DNA of 64,000 nucleotides from assembly GCA_965248435.1 (NCBI GenBank), contig OZ252100.1:3328001-3392000 (forward strand), read 5' to 3'. The position numbers and the translations under genes were made by a program. Below the pieces are notes generated by a model. It searched no databases. It was not told the origin of the DNA and worked only from the letters and a program-made list of their open reading frames with translations. Positions 41,713 to 47,516 of this stretch are shown here, one piece after another. Origin of the DNA: Candidatus Latescibacterota bacterium (GTDB lineage Bacteria; Latescibacterota; UBA2968; GCA-2709665). How positions within the stretch are numbered: position 1 is the first letter of the stretch; each line of letters starts with the position of its first letter.

Positions 41713-42111
41713 GTGCGGAAGTTTGGAGTGGGCAACAACGAAGAGAAACTCGTTTTCGTCGCGCAAAAGCACGACGCGACGACGCTTCATTACGACTTCC
41801 GGCTGGAAAGGGACGGCGTGTTGAAGAGTTGGGCCGTCCCGAAGGGCGTGCCGACTAAGGAGAGTGTAAAACGGTTGGCCGTGGAAGTGGAGGATCACGA
41901 TGTAGAGTACGGGGACTTCGAAGGGGAAATTGAAGAGGGGGAGTACGGCGCAGGGAAGGTGGAGATCTGGGACAACGGGCGTTATGAAGCGGAGTCGTGG
42001 AAAGAGGACAAGATCATCTTTGCACTCAATGGGAAACGATTCCAGGGACGCTACTGCCTGGTTCGCTTCAAGAGGGCAGGGGAAAAGAACTGGTTGCTGT
42101 TTCGGCTGTGA
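41713..42111 (+). CDS. Standalone LigD 3'-phosphoesterase domain protein
   Basis: FVAQKHDATTLHYDFRLE..GVLKSWAVPKG, KRLAVEVEDH, YGAGKVEIWDNG, NWLL; start uncertain (41713 or 41728). Confidence 0.88.
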   Translation: MRKFGVGNNEEKLVFVAQKHDATTLHYDFRLERDGVLKSWAVPKGVPTKESVKRLAVEVEDHDVEYGDFEGEIEEGEYGAGKVEIWDNGRYEAESWKEDKIIFALNGKRFQGRYCLVRFKRAGEKNWLLFRL

Positions 42112-42257
42112 CGATCTGACCTTTATAGCTTGACGGCTAAGCGGATGGCTTTCCGTTGCGTTTTGAGAATTTGCATCTTATTTTTGGTTGATAGGTTATC
42201 TGGACACGCTTTTGAAATAGAGTGTGTCCGGTTTTTTGTTGTGTCGCTGGGAGGACG

Positions 42258-43373
42258 ATGATCACGACACACACCGATGTCGTTGGAAGCCTGCTCCGTC
42301 CGGAGCGGCTGCTGAATGCTCGGGAAGACCTCGCGGCTGAGAGAATCACGGAAACGGACTTCAAGAAGGTCGAAGACCGCGCCGTCGATCATGCCGTCGC
42401 GATTCAGGAGGCGGCGGGACTTGGGGTGGTGACGGACGGAGAGATGCGACGTCAGTCGTTCCAGAGTCAGATGACCGAGGCGGTCGATGGATTTGGAGAA
42501 TACTCGCTGGATGCCTTCTTGTGGGGAGACTGGAAGGGGGATGATTCGGTCGGGGATCTGCACCTGGAGCGCCCGACCGCGCTCGGCGTCGAGCGGAAGT
42601 TGAGAAGGCGTCGCCACCTGAGTGTCCATGAATTCAATTACTTACGGGATCACACGACACGGATCCCGAAGGTCACCTTGCCGAGCCCGAGCCTGTGGGC
42701 GAATTTCTGGTCGCCCGAGCGATCTACGGAGGCCTACTCTTCACTTGACGAATTCCTTTCAGATGTTGCCATCATCCTGCGGGACGAGGTGACGGATCTG
42801 GTGCGTCTCGGGGCTCGGTACATCCAGCTGGATGCGCCACATTATACGCAGTTGATCGACCCGAAGACGCGGGCCTTTTATGAGGCACAGGGGTGGGACC
42901 TGGACCGCTGGGTGAGCGCCGGGATTGAGCTTGACAACGCGGTGATGGGTGACTTTCCTGGTATAACGTTCGGGTTTCACCTGTGACGAGGCAATCAGGG
43001 CAGCCGGTGGCTGCTCGACGGCGGGTACGAGCCGATTGCGGCCAGGATCTTCCAAGGGGTTCGCGCCCAGCGACTTCTGCTTGAATACGATGATGAGCGA
43101 TCGGGTTCCTTCCAGGCACTGAAGGAGGTCCCCGAGGAGAAGATGGTGGTGCTGGGTCTGGTCTCCTCCAAGACGCCGAGGTTGGAGACGCGAGAGGATC
43201 TTGGCGAACGGATCCGGGAAGCCAGTCAGTTCATCTCCTTGGAACGTCTAGCCCTGAGCACGCAGTGCGGCTTCGCGAGCTCTGTCGTGGGCAATCGAAT
43301 CTCAGAAGAAGACCAGAAGCGGAAGCTGGCGCTCGTCACCGAGACGGCGCGGGATGTCTGGAAAGACGCGTAA
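42258..43373 (+). CDS. Cobalamin-independent methionine synthase II family (MetE C-terminal-like) protein; predicted selenoprotein (Sec at 42984-42986)
   Basis: VVGSLLRP, VVTDGEMRR, YIQLDAP, H-L-[TGA]-R-G-N, LLEYDDERSGSF, VVLGLVSSK, LSTQCGFAS all in one frame; 371 aa with readthrough. Confidence 0.88.
42998..43016 (+). promoter_or_regulatory. Putative bacterial SECIS hairpin
   Basis: GGGCAGCC-GGU-GGCUGCUC 8-bp stem with G-first loop, beginning 11 nt after the UGA. Confidence 0.7.
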
Positions 43374-43410
43374 GACATTCGTCATTTGAACCAATCTTTA
43401 GGAGGAGACC

Positions 43411-44376
43411 ATGCTTGTGGGATTGAGGGTTTCGGGTTTTGTGTTCGCCACAATTATGATGGCCTCGTTTGCCCACGCCCAGAAGGAACGACACTTCGCC
43501 TTTACCTATAATGTAGAGATCACTGATCTACCGGAGTCCGCAAAGAAAGTGGAAGTATGGCTGCCGGTCCCGCCGGAGACACCGGAGCAGAAGATCAAAT
43601 CAGTCACTTTTGATTCACCTGTTGTCGGGAAGACGCATACCGAGGCGAGTTACGGGAATCGGATCTGGCACGCGCGAACGACTCCGCCGGTGAATGGCAC
43701 GTTGAGCATCACCCAACGCATCGACGTCGTTCGAAAAGAACAGAGTTTAGACCGGGATAGAAAACTGGCAGGCACAAACGGGTCTATGAATGAGTTTCTC
43801 AAAGAGAATCGCATGGTACCGCTGACTCCACGATTTCGTAAAATTGCTCTGGAGGAGACGAAGGATTCAGAGGCAGTCGTGGATCAGGCTCGCGCGCTGT
43901 ATGATTATGTGATGGGTCAGATGGCCTACGACAAGTCGGGCAAGGGATGGGGACGTGGGGACGCGAACTACGCCTGCGATATCCGAAAGGGCAACTGTAC
44001 GGACTATCACAGTCTGTTTATTGCACTGGAACGTTCGCTGGAGACGCCCGCCAGGTTCTGGATCGGGTTTCCTCTGCCGGAGGAAAGGGGGAAAGGGACG
44101 GTCGGCGGCTATCACTGCTGGGCTGAGTTCTGGGTACCGGACGCTGGCTGGATGCCTGTCGACATTTCAGAGGCGGACAAGCATCCAGAAAAAACGGAAT
44201 ACTTCTTCGGCAATGTGGACGAGAACCGGATTGTCTTCTCCGTCGGCCGAGACCTGACCCTGGAACCTGCGCAGCAGGGGGAGCCGATCAACTTCTTTGT
44301 TTACCCGTATGTCGAAGTGGACGGAAAGCCCTGGGCGCGTGTCGACACGCGCTTTTCCTATCAGGATCTGGATTAG
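43411..44376 (+). CDS. Exported transglutaminase-like domain protein
   Basis: Signal peptide (ASFAHA); GNCTDYHSLF, YHCWAEFW, GWMPVD Cys-His-Asp triad; AGGAGGAG RBS. Confidence 0.88.
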   Translation: MLVGLRVSGFVFATIMMASFAHAQKERHFAFTYNVEITDLPESAKKVEVWLPVPPETPEQKIKSVTFDSPVVGKTHTEASYGNRIWHARTTPPVNGTLSITQRIDVVRKEQSLDRDRKLAGTNGSMNEFLKENRMVPLTPRFRKIALEETKDSEAVVDQARALYDYVMGQMAYDKSGKGWGRGDANYACDIRKGNCTDYHSLFIALERSLETPARFWIGFPLPEERGKGTVGGYHCWAEFWVPDAGWMPVDISEADKHPEKTEYFFGNVDENRIVFSVGRDLTLEPAQQGEPINFFVYPYVEVDGKPWARVDTRFSYQDLD

Positions 44377-44394
44377 GCAAGAACTGCCAGGAGG

Positions 44395-45690
44395 ATGGCC
44401 GTGGAATCCGCCAAAACACTCGCCGAGTGGGTGAGCGACGCAAGACAGCGGACGATGGATCTGGTGGCCGACCTGACCGACGACCAGCTGATGGGGCCGA
44501 GCCTGGACACCGTCAATCCGCTGCGATGGGAGATCGGGCATATGGCCTGGTTCCAGGAGAAGTGGGTACTGCGGCACGTGGGGAAACAGGCGCCCTACCG
44601 GAAGAACGTGGACGCGCTTTATGATTCGATCGCGATCCCTCACGATGACCGCTGGGACCTGCCGCTCCCGAGCCGGGAAGAAACACTGACCTACATCCGT
44701 GAGGTCCGGGACCAGGTGCTGGAACGGGTTGAGCAGGGTCTGAGTGATAAGGAAGCCTACCACATCCTCTACTCCGTGTTTCACGAAGATATGCACACCG
44801 AGGCGTTTACGTATACCCGGCAAACGCTTGGCTACCCGCCTCCTGAACTGGCTGGTGTGGCTCCAGGCCCATCGGGAGGGGGGCGGCTGGATGGAGATGT
44901 GGAGATTCCTGGAGGAGAGTTTATGCTGGGTGCCGGCCAGGACGAACCGTTCGTGTTCGACAACGAAAAGTGGGCCCATCCGGTTACGCTGAAGCCTTTC
45001 TCGATTGCCCGGGCGCCGGTTACGCAGGCAGAATTCGCTGCGTTCGTCGAGGACAGGGGGTATGACCGGAAGGAGTTGTGGAGAGAGGGAGGTTGGGAGT
45101 GGCGGGAAACGGAAAGGGCGGACCATCCGGTCTACTGGCGAAAGGAGTCAGGCGGCGAGTGGCAGCGCCGTGATTTTGACCGTTGGGTTCCGCTCGAATC
45201 GGATCGACCCGTGATCCACGTCAACTGGTTCGAGGCGGAGGCATATTGCGCGTGGGCAGGTCGACGCCTGCCGACGGAGGCGGAGTGGGAGGCCGCGGCA
45301 GCGTGTGGGCACGACGGAGGAAGCCTATCCAAAAGTAAGCGCCGGTTTCCCTGGGGGGATGAGGGTCCCGAATCGGGGAAGGCCCATCTGGACTGGCGCG
45401 ACATGGGCTGTGCGGAGGTTGGGGCCTATCCAGAAGCGGAAAGTACTTTTGGCTGTCGACAGATGATCGGCAACGTTTGGGAGTGGACGAGCAGTGTATT
45501 TCTGCCTTATCCAGGATTCATTGCGGACCCATACGAGGAGTACTCTGAGCCGTGGTTCGAGACCCGCAAGGTCCTGCGCGGCGGCTCCTGGGCCACACGA
45601 TCCCGCATGCTGCGCAACACCTGGCGAAACTATTTTACGCCGGATAGACGGGATGTGATGGCTGGACTCCGAACGGTCGCAAAGTCGTGA
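44395..45690 (+). CDS. senA: Selenoneine synthase SenA (EgtB-like DinB plus FGE-sulfatase)
   Basis: NPLRWEIGHMAWFQEKW, HEDMHTEAF, FDNEKWAH, RRLPTEAEWE, GNVWEWT, YSEPWF, VLRGGSWAT; stop overlaps senB start. Confidence 0.85.
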   Translation: MAVESAKTLAEWVSDARQRTMDLVADLTDDQLMGPSLDTVNPLRWEIGHMAWFQEKWVLRHVGKQAPYRKNVDALYDSIAIPHDDRWDLPLPSREETLTYIREVRDQVLERVEQGLSDKEAYHILYSVFHEDMHTEAFTYTRQTLGYPPPELAGVAPGPSGGGRLDGDVEIPGGEFMLGAGQDEPFVFDNEKWAHPVTLKPFSIARAPVTQAEFAAFVEDRGYDRKELWREGGWEWRETERADHPVYWRKESGGEWQRRDFDRWVPLESDRPVIHVNWFEAEAYCAWAGRRLPTEAEWEAAAACGHDGGSLSKSKRRFPWGDEGPESGKAHLDWRDMGCAEVGAYPEAESTFGCRQMIGNVWEWTSSVFLPYPGFIADPYEEYSEPWFETRKVLRGGSWATRSRMLRNTWRNYFTPDRRDVMAGLRTVAKS

Positions 45691-46637
45691 GGATTTCCCT
45701 GATCACACCGGCACCGGCCGGCTCGAGGAAGGGAAATCGGGTGACCGCGCAGCGCTGGTCCAAAATCCTTCGTGGACTGGGGCACCGCGTGGACGTTGCT
45801 CAGGAATATGCGGGGAAGCGGTGCGACCTGATGGTGGCGCTCCACGCGCGGCGCAGCCACGCTTCGATCGCTCGGTTTCAGGAGGATCATCCGGACCTCC
45901 CCGTGGTCGTCGCGTTGACGGGGACGGATCTCTACGGAGATATTCACACGGATTCAGACGCTCAGCGGTCTCTGGACCTGGCATCGCGTCTGGTGATGCT
46001 GCAGCCCGAGGGACTTCGGGAGCTCCCGAAGCGCCACCGGCAGAAGGCGCGCGTCATCTATCAGGCGTTTACGTGACCGCAAGGAGACTTTGCCCCCAGG
46101 AAGGGGGTATTCGAGGTCTGTGTACTGGGTCACCTGAGAGAGGTGAAGGATCCGTTTCGCGCTGCTGAGGCAACCCGCCTGCTACCGGCGGAATCGCGGA
46201 TTGAAGTCCTGCAGGTAGGTGGGGCACTCGATGAAGCGAGTGCGGCGAGGGCGAAAGTGGAGGCGGCTGCCAATTCGAGATACCGGTGGCTGGGGGAGGT
46301 TCCGAGGTGGCGCGCCGTGAGGATCCTGGCTCGCAGCAGGTTGCTCGTAATGAGCTCGATTATGGAAGGGGGCGCGAACGCGGTGTCGGAGGCACTGGCG
46401 TGTCGCGTCCCTGTGCTTTCATCTCGAATCTCAGGCTCCATCGGTCTGCTGGGAAAGGATTATCCAGGCTATTTCAAGGTGGGAGATACGCAGGGGCTGG
46501 CCAGGCTTTTGAGAAAGGTGGAGACGGATTCAGACTTCCACAAAGGGCTTAAGCGTCATTGCCGACGTCTGGTCTCCATTGTGAATCCTGCGGACGAAAG
46601 GAGGAGGTGGAGATCGCTGCTCCAGGAACTGGGATAG
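45687..46637 (+). CDS. senB: Selenosugar synthase SenB (TIGR04348-type glycosyltransferase) with in-frame TGA at 46074-46076
   Basis: LITPAPAGSRKGNRVTAQRW, ALHARRS, LTGTDLY, GHLREVKDP, SIMEGGANAVSEA, GLLGKDYPGYF; ORFs 45687-46076 and 46143-46637 share a frame; GTGA overlap with senA. Confidence 0.85.
46085..46119 (+). promoter_or_regulatory. Putative bacterial SECIS hairpin after the senB UGA
   Basis: AGACUUU-GCCCCC-AGGAA-GGGGGU-AUUC-GAGGUCU; loop starts 21 nt after UGA with G at loop position 2. Confidence 0.55.
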
Positions 46638-46662
46638 CGGTTCGACCGGAGTTGTCTCGATT

Positions 46663-47133
46663 ATGTCTTTGAAGGAAGAGACATTCACGTTCTGGGATCC
46701 GCTTGAATTGGTCGACGGGGATCTTCGCCTCGTTCTGGTCGAAAAGCGATTCGGAAATCCTGCCAGGGATATTGTGCCTGCATACAAGTTCGAAATGAGG
46801 AAGATCGACACCTGGGAACCGATCGGGAGGGTCGATCTCCGAATCGGCAATACGGAGCATATCGTGATGTATTCGGGACACCTCGGCTACCGGGTGGAGC
46901 CACTCTACCGGGGTGAGAGATTCGCGGCAAGAAGCTGCGTGCTCCTGTTCGACCTGGCGAGGCGCCACCAAATCGATCCACTCTGGATCACCTGCAATCC
47001 TGAGAATGTCGCATCGCGTCGGACGTGCGAGCTTATTGGAGGTCGTCTCATCGAAATTGTGGCGCTACCGGAGAATACGGATATGTACAGTGAAGGCGAG
47101 CGCTTCAAATGTCGCTATCGCGTCGATGTATGA
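46663..47133 (+). CDS. GNAT-family acetyltransferase
   Basis: IGRVDLRIG, GHLGYRVEPLYRGERFA, ITCNPENVASRRTCELIGG. Confidence 0.85.
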   Translation: MSLKEETFTFWDPLELVDGDLRLVLVEKRFGNPARDIVPAYKFEMRKIDTWEPIGRVDLRIGNTEHIVMYSGHLGYRVEPLYRGERFAARSCVLLFDLARRHQIDPLWITCNPENVASRRTCELIGGRLIEIVALPENTDMYSEGERFKCRYRVDV

Positions 47134-47162
47134 GCGATAAAGCGTGTCTGGGAGGCCTAAAG

Positions 47163-47339
47163 ATGGAAGATCAGGAAGTGGTCGTGACCGACGTTCGTAT
47201 GCAGTTCTCGAGTATGGTCGTCTTTATGGTCAAATGGGTTATTGCGTCCATACCCGCGCTGATTATCCTGGCCGCGCTGGGTGCGCTCATCGTGGCTTTC
47301 TTTGCGGCGTTCCTGCGCTCGCTGTTCTGGCCATATTAA
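47163..47339 (+). CDS. Small membrane protein
   Basis: GGAGG RBS, MEDQEVVVTDVRMQFSSMVVFMVKWVIASIPALIIL plus a hydrophobic helix. Confidence 0.7.
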   Translation: MEDQEVVVTDVRMQFSSMVVFMVKWVIASIPALIILAALGALIVAFFAAFLRSLFWPY

Positions 47340-47400
47340 AGAAGCGTATTTCGTATCTCGTGGCGCTGGATGTTGCGAACATAGATGGCTAGCCACCTCG

Positions 47401-47480
47401 CACGGGCAGCAAGCTGCCCGTGGCACACGCAGAGTATTCACAGAAATGATCTTGTGGCACCGGCAGCTCGCTGCCGGTGG
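47401..47480. repeat. REP-like palindrome doublet, inverted orientation
   Basis: CACGGGCAGC-AA-GCTGCCCGTG-GCAC and GTGG-CACCGGCAGC-TC-GCTGCCGGTG between convergent genes. Confidence 0.7.
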
Positions 47481-47516
47481 GCAATGTTGAGCGTATTTTG
47501 TCCGGCTTGGTGAAGA

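Follow-up and report, generated by a model that had tools for sequence, protein, structure and literature searches.

A probable selenocysteine codon in the selenosugar synthase gene senB of a Candidatus Latescibacterota bacterium

A 64,000-nucleotide (nt) stretch of the genome of a Candidatus Latescibacterota bacterium (contig OZ252100.1 of assembly GCA_965248435.1, positions 3,328,001 to 3,392,000; hereafter the window, whose own numbering is used throughout) carries senB, the gene for the selenosugar synthase SenB, with a UGA stop codon at codon 130 (IYQAFT-TGA-PQGDFAPRKGVFEVCVLGHLREVKDP). SenB provides the selenium sugar needed for the antioxidant selenoneine; it is, to our knowledge, the only known Se-glycosyltransferase, and the locus raises the question of whether its gene is broken, divided in two or read through, and, if it is read through, with which amino acid and to what end. 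The original prediction, made from the letters of the window, was that the UGA encodes selenocysteine (Sec, U) with the help of a hairpin of the selenocysteine insertion sequence (SECIS) type, and that it serves as a selenium-gated switch on translation. The comparisons described here suggest that codon 130 is very likely decoded as Sec, which would make SenB a selenoprotein in this bacterium. That the UGA itself is the selected feature, as a selenium-supply checkpoint on a selenium-consuming enzyme, is a tentative proposal that we weigh further below.

The UGA codon of senB and the hairpin behind it

When the UGA is read through, the predicted protein matches the SenB profile TIGR04348 at 404.8 bits (cut-off 300), with residues 3-313 aligned to positions 1-309 of the 310 in the profile, and phmmer matches it to solved SenB chains in the PDB (E 1.3e-55). 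Since the read-through protein covers nearly the whole profile, both halves of senB are intact and lie in one frame, and the TGA is the only one in frame over the 316 codons; these observations reproduce what was first seen in the sequence. The TGA is also not an assembly slip. A contig of the probable source sequencing run is identical. In an independent run of a seawater metagenome (X7, 95-99% alike), positions 45687-46495 are covered by a contig that differs at 13 places; the 12 of these that are listed all fall outside 46074-46076 and 46091-46109, the position of the 13th not being given. Neither the TGA nor the hairpin is altered in a 209-nt RNA-library contig (X19) that extends over 46071-46279. 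A sequencing or assembly error, against which the codon had first to be checked, does not account for a TGA that independent contigs keep.

Public gene calls present senB as two pieces of 129 amino acids (P0275) and 126 amino acids (P0276), as would be expected if the gene were split into two Rossmann-domain polypeptides that associate, the second starting at the GTG at 46143. The halves of a glycosyltransferase B (GT-B) fold are separate domains, which would suit such an arrangement. However, the C-terminal domain has its first strand and the H149/R151 motif in the 22 codons from the TGA to this GTG, and these codons are conserved in frame in every TGA form. Of 150 diverse representatives of the family, 149 have Arg at the place of R151 and 128 have His at that of H149. 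Because these codons encode FEVCVLGHLRE with the invariant R151, they must be translated, by read-through of the TGA. There is also no conserved start codon or ribosome-binding gap after the TGA, and we consider a split gene extremely improbable. The same can be said of a pseudogene arising from a plain nonsense mutation. In favour of this, senB is normal but for one TGA, which lies at a site without a conserved Cys. However, the same TGA is kept in eight genomes of three families and in two metagenome contigs, the hairpin covaries, and an intact SenA is encoded alongside. Furthermore, the ratio of nonsynonymous to synonymous substitution rates (dN/dS) for codons 131-316 is about 0.1-0.3, similar to that for codons 1-129 (28 pairs, wherever dS was computable), and the downstream half is under purifying selection. 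As far as gene sequences can tell, the comparative data contradict both the split gene and the pseudogene.

A profile search that reads through stops found SenB in 12 of 61 related genomes, eight of these with exactly one TGA, and in 31 of the 168 genomes of the larger phylum set, nine of these with one TGA. We aligned 30 orthologs, leaving out a partial match in G104. The TGA falls in one column in eight of the 30, which belong to three taxonomic families (f1, f2 and f4), and the same column otherwise holds Pro (12), Ala (8), Val (1) and, in G049, a Cys encoded by TGC. A single genome, G109 (L070), has Pro in this column and a TGA of its own at residue 165. Two more TGA forms came from metagenome contigs (L110 and L111) found with a degenerate DNA pattern search, and two other metagenome contigs are identical to the G042 form over the printed gene sequence. 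The TGA-form SenBs are 57-70% identical in protein and have no additional stops or frameshifts. In a maximum-likelihood tree of 58 rows, ten U forms and three Cys forms make up one clade (support of 94 in the Shimodaira-Hasegawa-like approximate likelihood ratio test, SH-aLRT), with the Cys trio (G049, P0014 and P0029) nested within the U forms. The simplest reading of this tree is a single origin of U130 followed by one change from Sec to Cys. A shared TGA, one lineage that exchanges it for Cys and a covarying hairpin are what the original prediction had looked for in related genomes. As controls, selA and SenA were searched for in-frame stops in the phylum's genomes, with none in 132 and 34 matches, respectively, which speaks against a general artefact.

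The hairpin begins 17 nt after the UGA and its loop 21 nt after it. The UGA together with the next 59 nt folds to -25.9 kcal/mol (z = -2.34), with GCCCCC/GGGGGU in the stem, and three of 200 shuffled sequences fold as well. The RNAalifold consensus of the eight TGA orthologs is a stem of 7 base pairs (bp) with a 5-nt loop in which the GG at 46099-46100 is invariant. In this upper helix 91.1% of the alignment cells are paired and four of the seven pairs have compensatory changes. None of 500 shuffles reaches the paired share or the covariation score, at least as many compensatory pairs occur in two of the 500, and controls with slid partners are paired at 64.3% at most. Several of the compensating changes lie at third codon positions (Pro CCC/CCU with Lys AAG/Arg AGA; Ala GCC/Thr ACU with Gly GGG/GGA), and the L111 contig carries the stem variant ACUCCC/GGGAGU. 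At the hairpin positions the eight TGA forms average 6.4 of 7 pairs and -11.65 kcal/mol and the 21 non-TGA orthologs 2.2 of 7 pairs and -5.3 kcal/mol; the Cys form keeps 6 of 7 pairs at -6.8 kcal/mol. The loop lies at the distance from the UGA that was first given, and the upper helix is the only part of the hairpin conserved in relatives. The lower stem drawn beneath them, AGACUUU/GAGGUCU, is specific to this genome, with 62.5% pairing and no compensatory changes in the TGA orthologs.

In section 5 of PMC13188914, the bacterial SECIS model has a loop of 3-9 nt, a stem of 4-16 bp, a G in the first two loop positions, a distance of 16-37 nt from the UGA and a minimum free energy (MFE) of at most -7.5. 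With a 5-nt loop, a 7-bp stem, G at loop position 2, a spacing of 21 nt and a local MFE of -12.9, the senB hairpin falls within every one of these rules. A scan of 42000-47500 against Rfam at E up to 1 returned a chance miRNA match only.

The genome also has what Sec decoding needs, another point on which the original prediction depended: selA (568.6 bits), selB (370.8 bits) and selD (371.7 bits) are all above their cut-offs, and the gene for tRNA-SeC, selC, lies beside them at C1:1062483-1062580. This selD carries a UGA of its own in the context SCGG-U-ASK. No second SelD in the genome exceeds the cut-off, which leaves senAB without a dedicated senC. selA is found in all eight genomes with the TGA at codon 130. 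Other selenoprotein genes of this bacterium have hairpins at the same distance. The loop lies 19 nt after the UGA in the gene for FdhA (TIGR01591, 645.5 bits; SRA-U-HAP), 20 nt after it for a ResA-like protein with the motif WAxxUGC and 21 nt after it for a Prx-like SW-U-PPC protein, next to a spacing of 20 nt in SelD and 21 nt in SenB. A TTW-U-PLC protein without an NCBIfam match is encoded by a further selenoprotein gene, and in these four genes (L108, L100, L104 and L101) the loops are 19-21 nt after the UGA. Our scan of the genome's own TGAs gives an incomplete selenoproteome, as its frame filter passed over selD (UGA too near the start), senB and a MetE-like gene of the window described below.

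The same scan brought up three pairs of neighbouring genes (L102, L106 and L109) that lie in the same frame with a single TGA between them and a hairpin after it, for example TsaB/RimI and a VWA protein/XdhC. Such pairs mimic selenoprotein genes, and they call for caution with hairpin-based calls.

A UGA can also be read through without selenocysteine, by a near-cognate Trp or Cys tRNA at a leaky UGA-C, perhaps aided by the hairpin. In E. coli, termination at UGA-C is weak; all eight TGA orthologs have UGAC, and many residues are tolerated at this site. Against this, the loop G and the spacing of 19-21 nt recur in the selenoprotein genes recognised in this genome, which has the complete Sec machinery, and the nested Cys form has a weakening stem. 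Leakage would moreover yield only a few per cent of full-length enzyme, and we regard this explanation as very improbable.

Several points weigh against Sec decoding. The support consists of sequence comparison, and the RNA-library contig may stem from DNA carry-over, which limits it as a sign of expression. Rank tests of TGA against non-TGA hairpins are inflated, the TGA forms being one clade. Pro (CCN) and Gly (GGN) codons partly build the hairpin by themselves, and a non-TGA ortholog (G053) has a shifted CCCCA/UGGGG stem. A hairpin with open frames on both sides is also easily come by: 425 TGAs in this genome qualify, and three of ten that were tested are merely neighbouring genes, so by itself this criterion is weak evidence for Sec decoding. 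Furthermore, the Sec is aligned with no conserved Cys, unlike in most catalogued selenoproteins, and Cys occurs there in one lineage only. Two of the eight possible single-base sense changes of TGA lead to TGY.

With these points taken into account, we still find Sec decoding the best explanation of the UGA, and its consequences for the enzyme can be outlined. SelB with Sec-tRNA(Sec) would be recruited by the hairpin (7 bp and 5 nt, 17 nt after the UGA), and the ribosome would continue into the Rossmann domain of the C-terminal half, with its catalytic Lys, K154 (K158 in Variovorax paradoxus). Without Sec-tRNA(Sec), release factor 2 (RF2) would end the chain after 129 residues, leaving no active SenB. 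Full-length SenB would depend on Sec-tRNA because any Sec codon makes its protein so dependent, as is established for Sec decoding. The synthesis of selenosugar, and hence of selenoneine, would in this way be tied to the supply of SelD and selenophosphate that also feeds selenoproteins.

Residue 130 in the interdomain linker

In an AlphaFold model of SenB (predicted local distance difference test score, pLDDT, 95.8), which Foldseek superposes on the GT-B fold of 8jjn_A with a template modelling (TM) score of 0.94 and a root-mean-square deviation (rmsd) of 2.0, U130 lies in a coil of residues 124-141 between strands 121-123 and 142-147. This agrees with its original placement between the two Rossmann domains. 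In V. paradoxus SenB, according to PMC10891094, the N-terminal domain ends at residue 130, a linker loop covers 131-145 and the active site lies in the interdomain cleft, where Q131 contacts C4' of the sugar and K158 is the key catalytic residue. Residues 130-145 of that enzyme are proposed to order upon donor binding (PMC10702425). Q126, R151 and K154 of the SenB studied here correspond to Q131, R155 and K158 of V. paradoxus SenB, and K154, R151 and Q126 are kept in 149, 149 and 146 of the 150 diverse representatives.

Residue 130 itself varies widely. The 120 nearest full-length homologs have Ala (67), Lys (22), Pro (10), Arg (8), Val (4), Gly (4), Cys (3), Ser (1) or Leu (1) there, and among the 150 diverse representatives we counted Pro (60), Ala (24), Arg (12), Leu (12), Ser (8), Val (7), Thr (6), Lys (4) and Cys (2), among others. 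On these alignments residue 130 is a hypervariable linker position with no conserved Cys, consistent with the earlier remark that the UGA is not at an obvious catalytic Cys. Because of this variability (the aligned 8jjn chain, an active enzyme, has Ser), Sec cannot belong to the general SenB mechanism. Three residues only are specific to the TGA clade, Gly43, Thr129 and U130, with no clade-specific partner Cys among them. Thr129 accompanies U130 in seven of the eight TGA forms and in the Cys form, and is found in at most three of the 21 other orthologs.

It is possible that Sec was inserted in this clade for its chemistry and that the dependence on selenium supply is a by-product. Placed on a flexible linker where the catalytic cleft opens, a selenol would take part in handling selenium, and its tasks may include holding the selenosugar product as a Se-Se adduct until SenA receives it, delivering or retaining selenophosphate, or re-reducing oxidised product. 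Gln126 is the equivalent of the Q131 that binds the sugar at C4' in V. paradoxus SenB, and the linker (130/131-145 there) is the part suggested to become ordered when the donor binds (PMC10702425 and PMC10891094). Thr129 is conserved along with U130, the sole loss of Sec is to Cys, and G042 and G038 read C-T-U, a spacing of the CxU type. On the other hand, nearly all other SenBs have Ala, Lys, Pro or Arg at 130, no partner Cys marks the clade, and one role at this site leaves UGA codons at residues 171 and 211, elsewhere in the fold (see below), unexplained. We therefore consider a chemical role rather unlikely. That a Sec at this hypervariable position is neutral and simply tolerated seems improbable to us.

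UGA codons elsewhere in SenB and a possible selenium checkpoint

A scan of other phyla with the window protein gave 26 loci, of which 25 have no stop in the linker and one (L099) was left unparsed; its patterns were too query-specific for the TGA clade. We then scanned the window's phylum and five further phyla, chosen through the loci of this cross-phylum scan, with TIGR04348. Of the 1410 genomes, 151 have SenB, and they hold 16 truly in-frame SenB TGAs at six places, three of which are common to at least two genomes. No TGA was found in the SenB genes of 17 of 51 genomes in the phylum of G168, nor in those of 26 of 301 in the phylum of G172.

In the phylum of G169 (SAR324-titled), 16 of 88 genomes have SenB and three have a TGA, in each case at residue 171 (G233, G225 and G226; loci L138, L140 and L141). 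The context is LLPE[DS]S-U-IRVLH, six relatives have Arg at this place, dN/dS downstream is 0.26-0.37, and selB is found in all five genomes tested. In the phylum of G170 (Chloroflexota-titled), SenB is present in 7 of 401 genomes, and two genomes have a TGA at residue 211 (G1104, L177; G1059, L178). Behind this UGA-211 comes a stem of 6 bp whose CGUGC loop lies 20 nt on, one pair is compensatory between the two genomes, and downstream dN/dS is 0.25. One of the two genomes has selB; in G1059 there was no match at E 1e-50, which is no evidence of absence as the completeness of this genome is not given. On the model of the window's SenB, residue 171 lies just before strand 172-177 and residue 211 inside helix 207-216.

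In the phylum of G171 (Gemmatales-titled), 54 of 401 genomes have SenB and three were flagged for a TGA. One flag, in G708, was rejected, the stop being upstream of the start and so no in-frame SenB TGA. G1006 (L176) has a single in-frame TGA at about residue 27. The TGA of G849 (L174) is again a linker codon, though not codon 130: it lies five residues past the Gln, in a SenB 43% identical to that of the window, and an 8-bp stem has a GGA loop 20 nt after the UGA.

Public gene calls also include many short SenB pieces. Among the best 120 of 696 matches (P0277-P0394 among them), many share identical ends: four stop after residue 129, like the first piece of the window's senB, 33 are 170-residue pieces that stop after residue 170, and for 20 the last residue is 144 (...FEV), while 22 have residue 146 or 147 as their first. 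The last two classes suggest that some lineages have an in-frame stop where FEV-C-VLGH has its conserved Cys145, a suggestion drawn from protein pieces only. Short proteins are often cut at contig ends, but identical ends across many clusters argue otherwise; DNA was seen for part of these classes. A pattern scan of viral contigs for the class with FEV-stop-VLGH gave no match.

These findings bear on what the UGA may be for. Under our tentative proposal, the codon acts as a checkpoint by which selenophosphate would be spent on selenoneine only once Sec-tRNA(Sec), and hence selenoprotein synthesis, is satisfied. We lean towards it because the site at residue 130 is hypervariable and the conserved UGAs of other phyla lie elsewhere in SenB, and it gains circumstantial support from in-frame TGAs being confined to senB among the genes checked (SenA and SelA having none, as above). 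Stated with still more reserve, senB could have gained a Sec-UGA repeatedly and independently at catalytically indifferent sites, the codon itself being useful as a checkpoint. Such sites might be residue 130, the other linker position in G849, 171, 211 and possibly Cys145. Conserved UGAs scattered over unrelated positions are unusual for a selenoprotein family and hard to explain by selenol chemistry alone.

Several points stand against a checkpoint. Every selenoprotein depends on the supply of Sec, and this dependence need not be a selected function. Presence of selA does not set TGA forms apart from others (131 of the 168 phylum genomes have it), and adjacency to senC does not separate TGA from non-TGA forms either. 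With 1.5-kb flanks, a SelD-like gene stands beside senB only at L044 among the 30 phylum loci L044-L073, and only at L149 among L126-L173. The hairpin just after UGA-171 is present equally in non-TGA relatives, so nothing at that site is specific to a SECIS. At codon 130, Thr129 travels with U130, and Sec has been replaced by Cys and not by Ala or Pro, both of them hints of chemistry at the site; and Gln126, the counterpart of the sugar-contacting Q131 (PMC10891094), is four residues before U130.

If the checkpoint proposal is true, this would be the first Sec codon in bacteria that owes its selection to nutrient sensing and not to the chemistry of a selenol; we know of no sensor role demonstrated for any bacterial Sec codon. 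One codon would link two selenium economies, selenoproteins and selenoneine, and it offers a testable idea of how they are ranked under selenium scarcity. There are practical consequences as well. Gene callers split the TGA form of senB, and such genes are consequently missed when sen clusters or selenoneine producers are counted in marine and soil metagenomes. Expressed in E. coli as annotated, such a senB would give a truncated, dead enzyme.

Relation to known systems and neighbouring genes

The SenB described here resembles the characterised enzymes from V. paradoxus (PDB 8FBX, 8JJN, 8JJQ, 8JJT and 8RZ3) and RsSenB (8K5U) in family, fold and an adjoining senA, and it shares with V. paradoxus SenB the catalytic Lys of GHLRxVK, the Gln before the linker and the EGGA motif. 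Unlike those SenBs, which are without Sec, it has a UGA and a SECIS-type hairpin at codon 130. The locus also differs from that of V. paradoxus in having no senC beside senAB, the lone SelD of the genome being the housekeeping one and itself a selenoprotein.

The classic case of a SECIS within a gene is fdhF of E. coli. senB is like bacterial selenoprotein genes of this kind (PMC13188914, Fig. 2 legend) in its in-frame UGA, a close stem-loop 3' of it, an early G in the loop and the company of SelA, SelB, SelC and SelD. The Sec of SenB is unlike that of other bacterial selenoproteins in lying outside any redox motif, metal site or catalytic site, with mostly Ala, Pro, Lys or Arg in homologs. 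Another parallel is Sec-containing SelD and its mammalian counterpart SEPHS2, which, like SenB, are enzymes of selenium metabolism that need selenium for their own synthesis. SEPHS2 has been proposed to autoregulate selenoprotein synthesis through its own Sec. In SelD, however, Sec replaces the catalytic Cys of the selenium-binding loop, whereas the SenB site is not conserved, and SelD makes the selenophosphate that SenB drains into a small molecule.

Recoding that senses a factor is known from the frameshift in prfB by which RF2 autoregulates, and from the selenium-dependent hierarchy of mammalian selenoprotein synthesis. In such systems the outcome of recoding reports the level of a factor or a charged tRNA and sets the output, as it would for senB. 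Unlike for sensors of the prfB type, a sensor role for senB is inferred from the pattern of sites. The occurrence of Sec at several positions of one fold, depending on the lineage, has a precedent in rhodanese forms 1-5 and DsbA-like forms 1-2 (PMC13188914, Table 1). Those forms have redox motifs (UxxC, CxU), whereas the SenB sites are at variable surface or linker positions with no shared motif.

A literature search for a Sec form of SenB found none; unexamined selenoprotein datasets and supplements (BSepDB, deep-Sep) might include one. The available parts of the SenB literature, including PMC10891094, PMC10702425, PMC11237966 and bioRxiv 10.1101/2022.04.13.486033, do not mention a Sec form, and a Sec-containing SenB is not mentioned in the available parts of the selenoprotein literature, including PMC13188914, PMC13326102 and PMC12013277. 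Table 1 of PMC13188914, a review of May 2026 with 119 prokaryotic selenoprotein families, has no entry for SenB, TIGR04348 or a glycosyltransferase, and NCBIfam release 20 offers only the general SenB model. Judged by gene comparison, SenB is very probably a new and unusual selenoprotein family, with Sec outside any conserved Cys or redox motif and in differing places by phylum.

The features discussed are collected in Table 1. The stop codon of senA overlaps the GTG start of senB by 4 nt (GTGA).

Table 1. Positions of senB, its UGA and hairpin, neighbouring genes and the Sec machinery (window numbering except for the last row)
Feature	Position	Strand	Description
MetE-like gene	42258-43373	+	Short cobalamin-independent methionine-synthase family; TGA 42984-42986, hairpin 42998-43016
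Transglutaminase-core protein (PF01841)	43411-44376	+	Between the MetE-like gene and senA
senA, selenoneine synthase	44395-45690	+	431 amino acids, intact; NF041186 519.6 bits, cut-off 420; Pfam DinB_2 and FGE-sulfatase
senB, selenosugar synthase	45687-46637	+	316 codons and stop; single in-frame TGA
UGA codon 130, proposed Sec codon	46074-46076	+	Interdomain linker
Codons from the TGA to the nearest possible start behind it (GTG 46143)	46077-46142	+	22 codons; conserved FEVCVLGHLRE strand and motif including R151
SECIS-type hairpin	46091-46109	+	Stem 46091-46097 with 46103-46109 (7 bp); loop 46098-46102, AGGAA
GNAT acetyltransferase (PF13302)	46663-47133	+	Directly after senB
selC-selD-selB-selA cluster	C1:1062483-1067069		Outside the window; compact; 2.3 Mb from senAB

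The MetE-like gene, 2.7 kb upstream of senB, has an in-frame TGA as well. Read through, its product matches PRK06520 at 246.2 bits (cut-off 313) and PRK06233 at 241 bits (cut-off 576), at full length and below both cut-offs. The TGA stands at the Cys of an H-x-C motif (FGFHL-U-RGNQ), which we take to be a zinc ligand, as in MetE, and a stem of 8 bp with GGU as its loop lies 19 nt behind the UGA. Among 12 orthologs in the phylum, three have TGA (G000, G050 and G038) and nine have Cys, and in five of the 12 genomes (G000, G050, G060, G102 and G104) the gene lies within about 6 kb of senA/senB. A Sec family of this kind is not in the 119-family Table 1 of PMC13188914, and the MetE-like protein would be a second uncatalogued Sec candidate in the same row of genes. 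This row may comprise five genes, for the MetE-like protein, the transglutaminase-core protein, SenA, SenB and the GNAT acetyltransferase, all on one strand and with short gaps between them.

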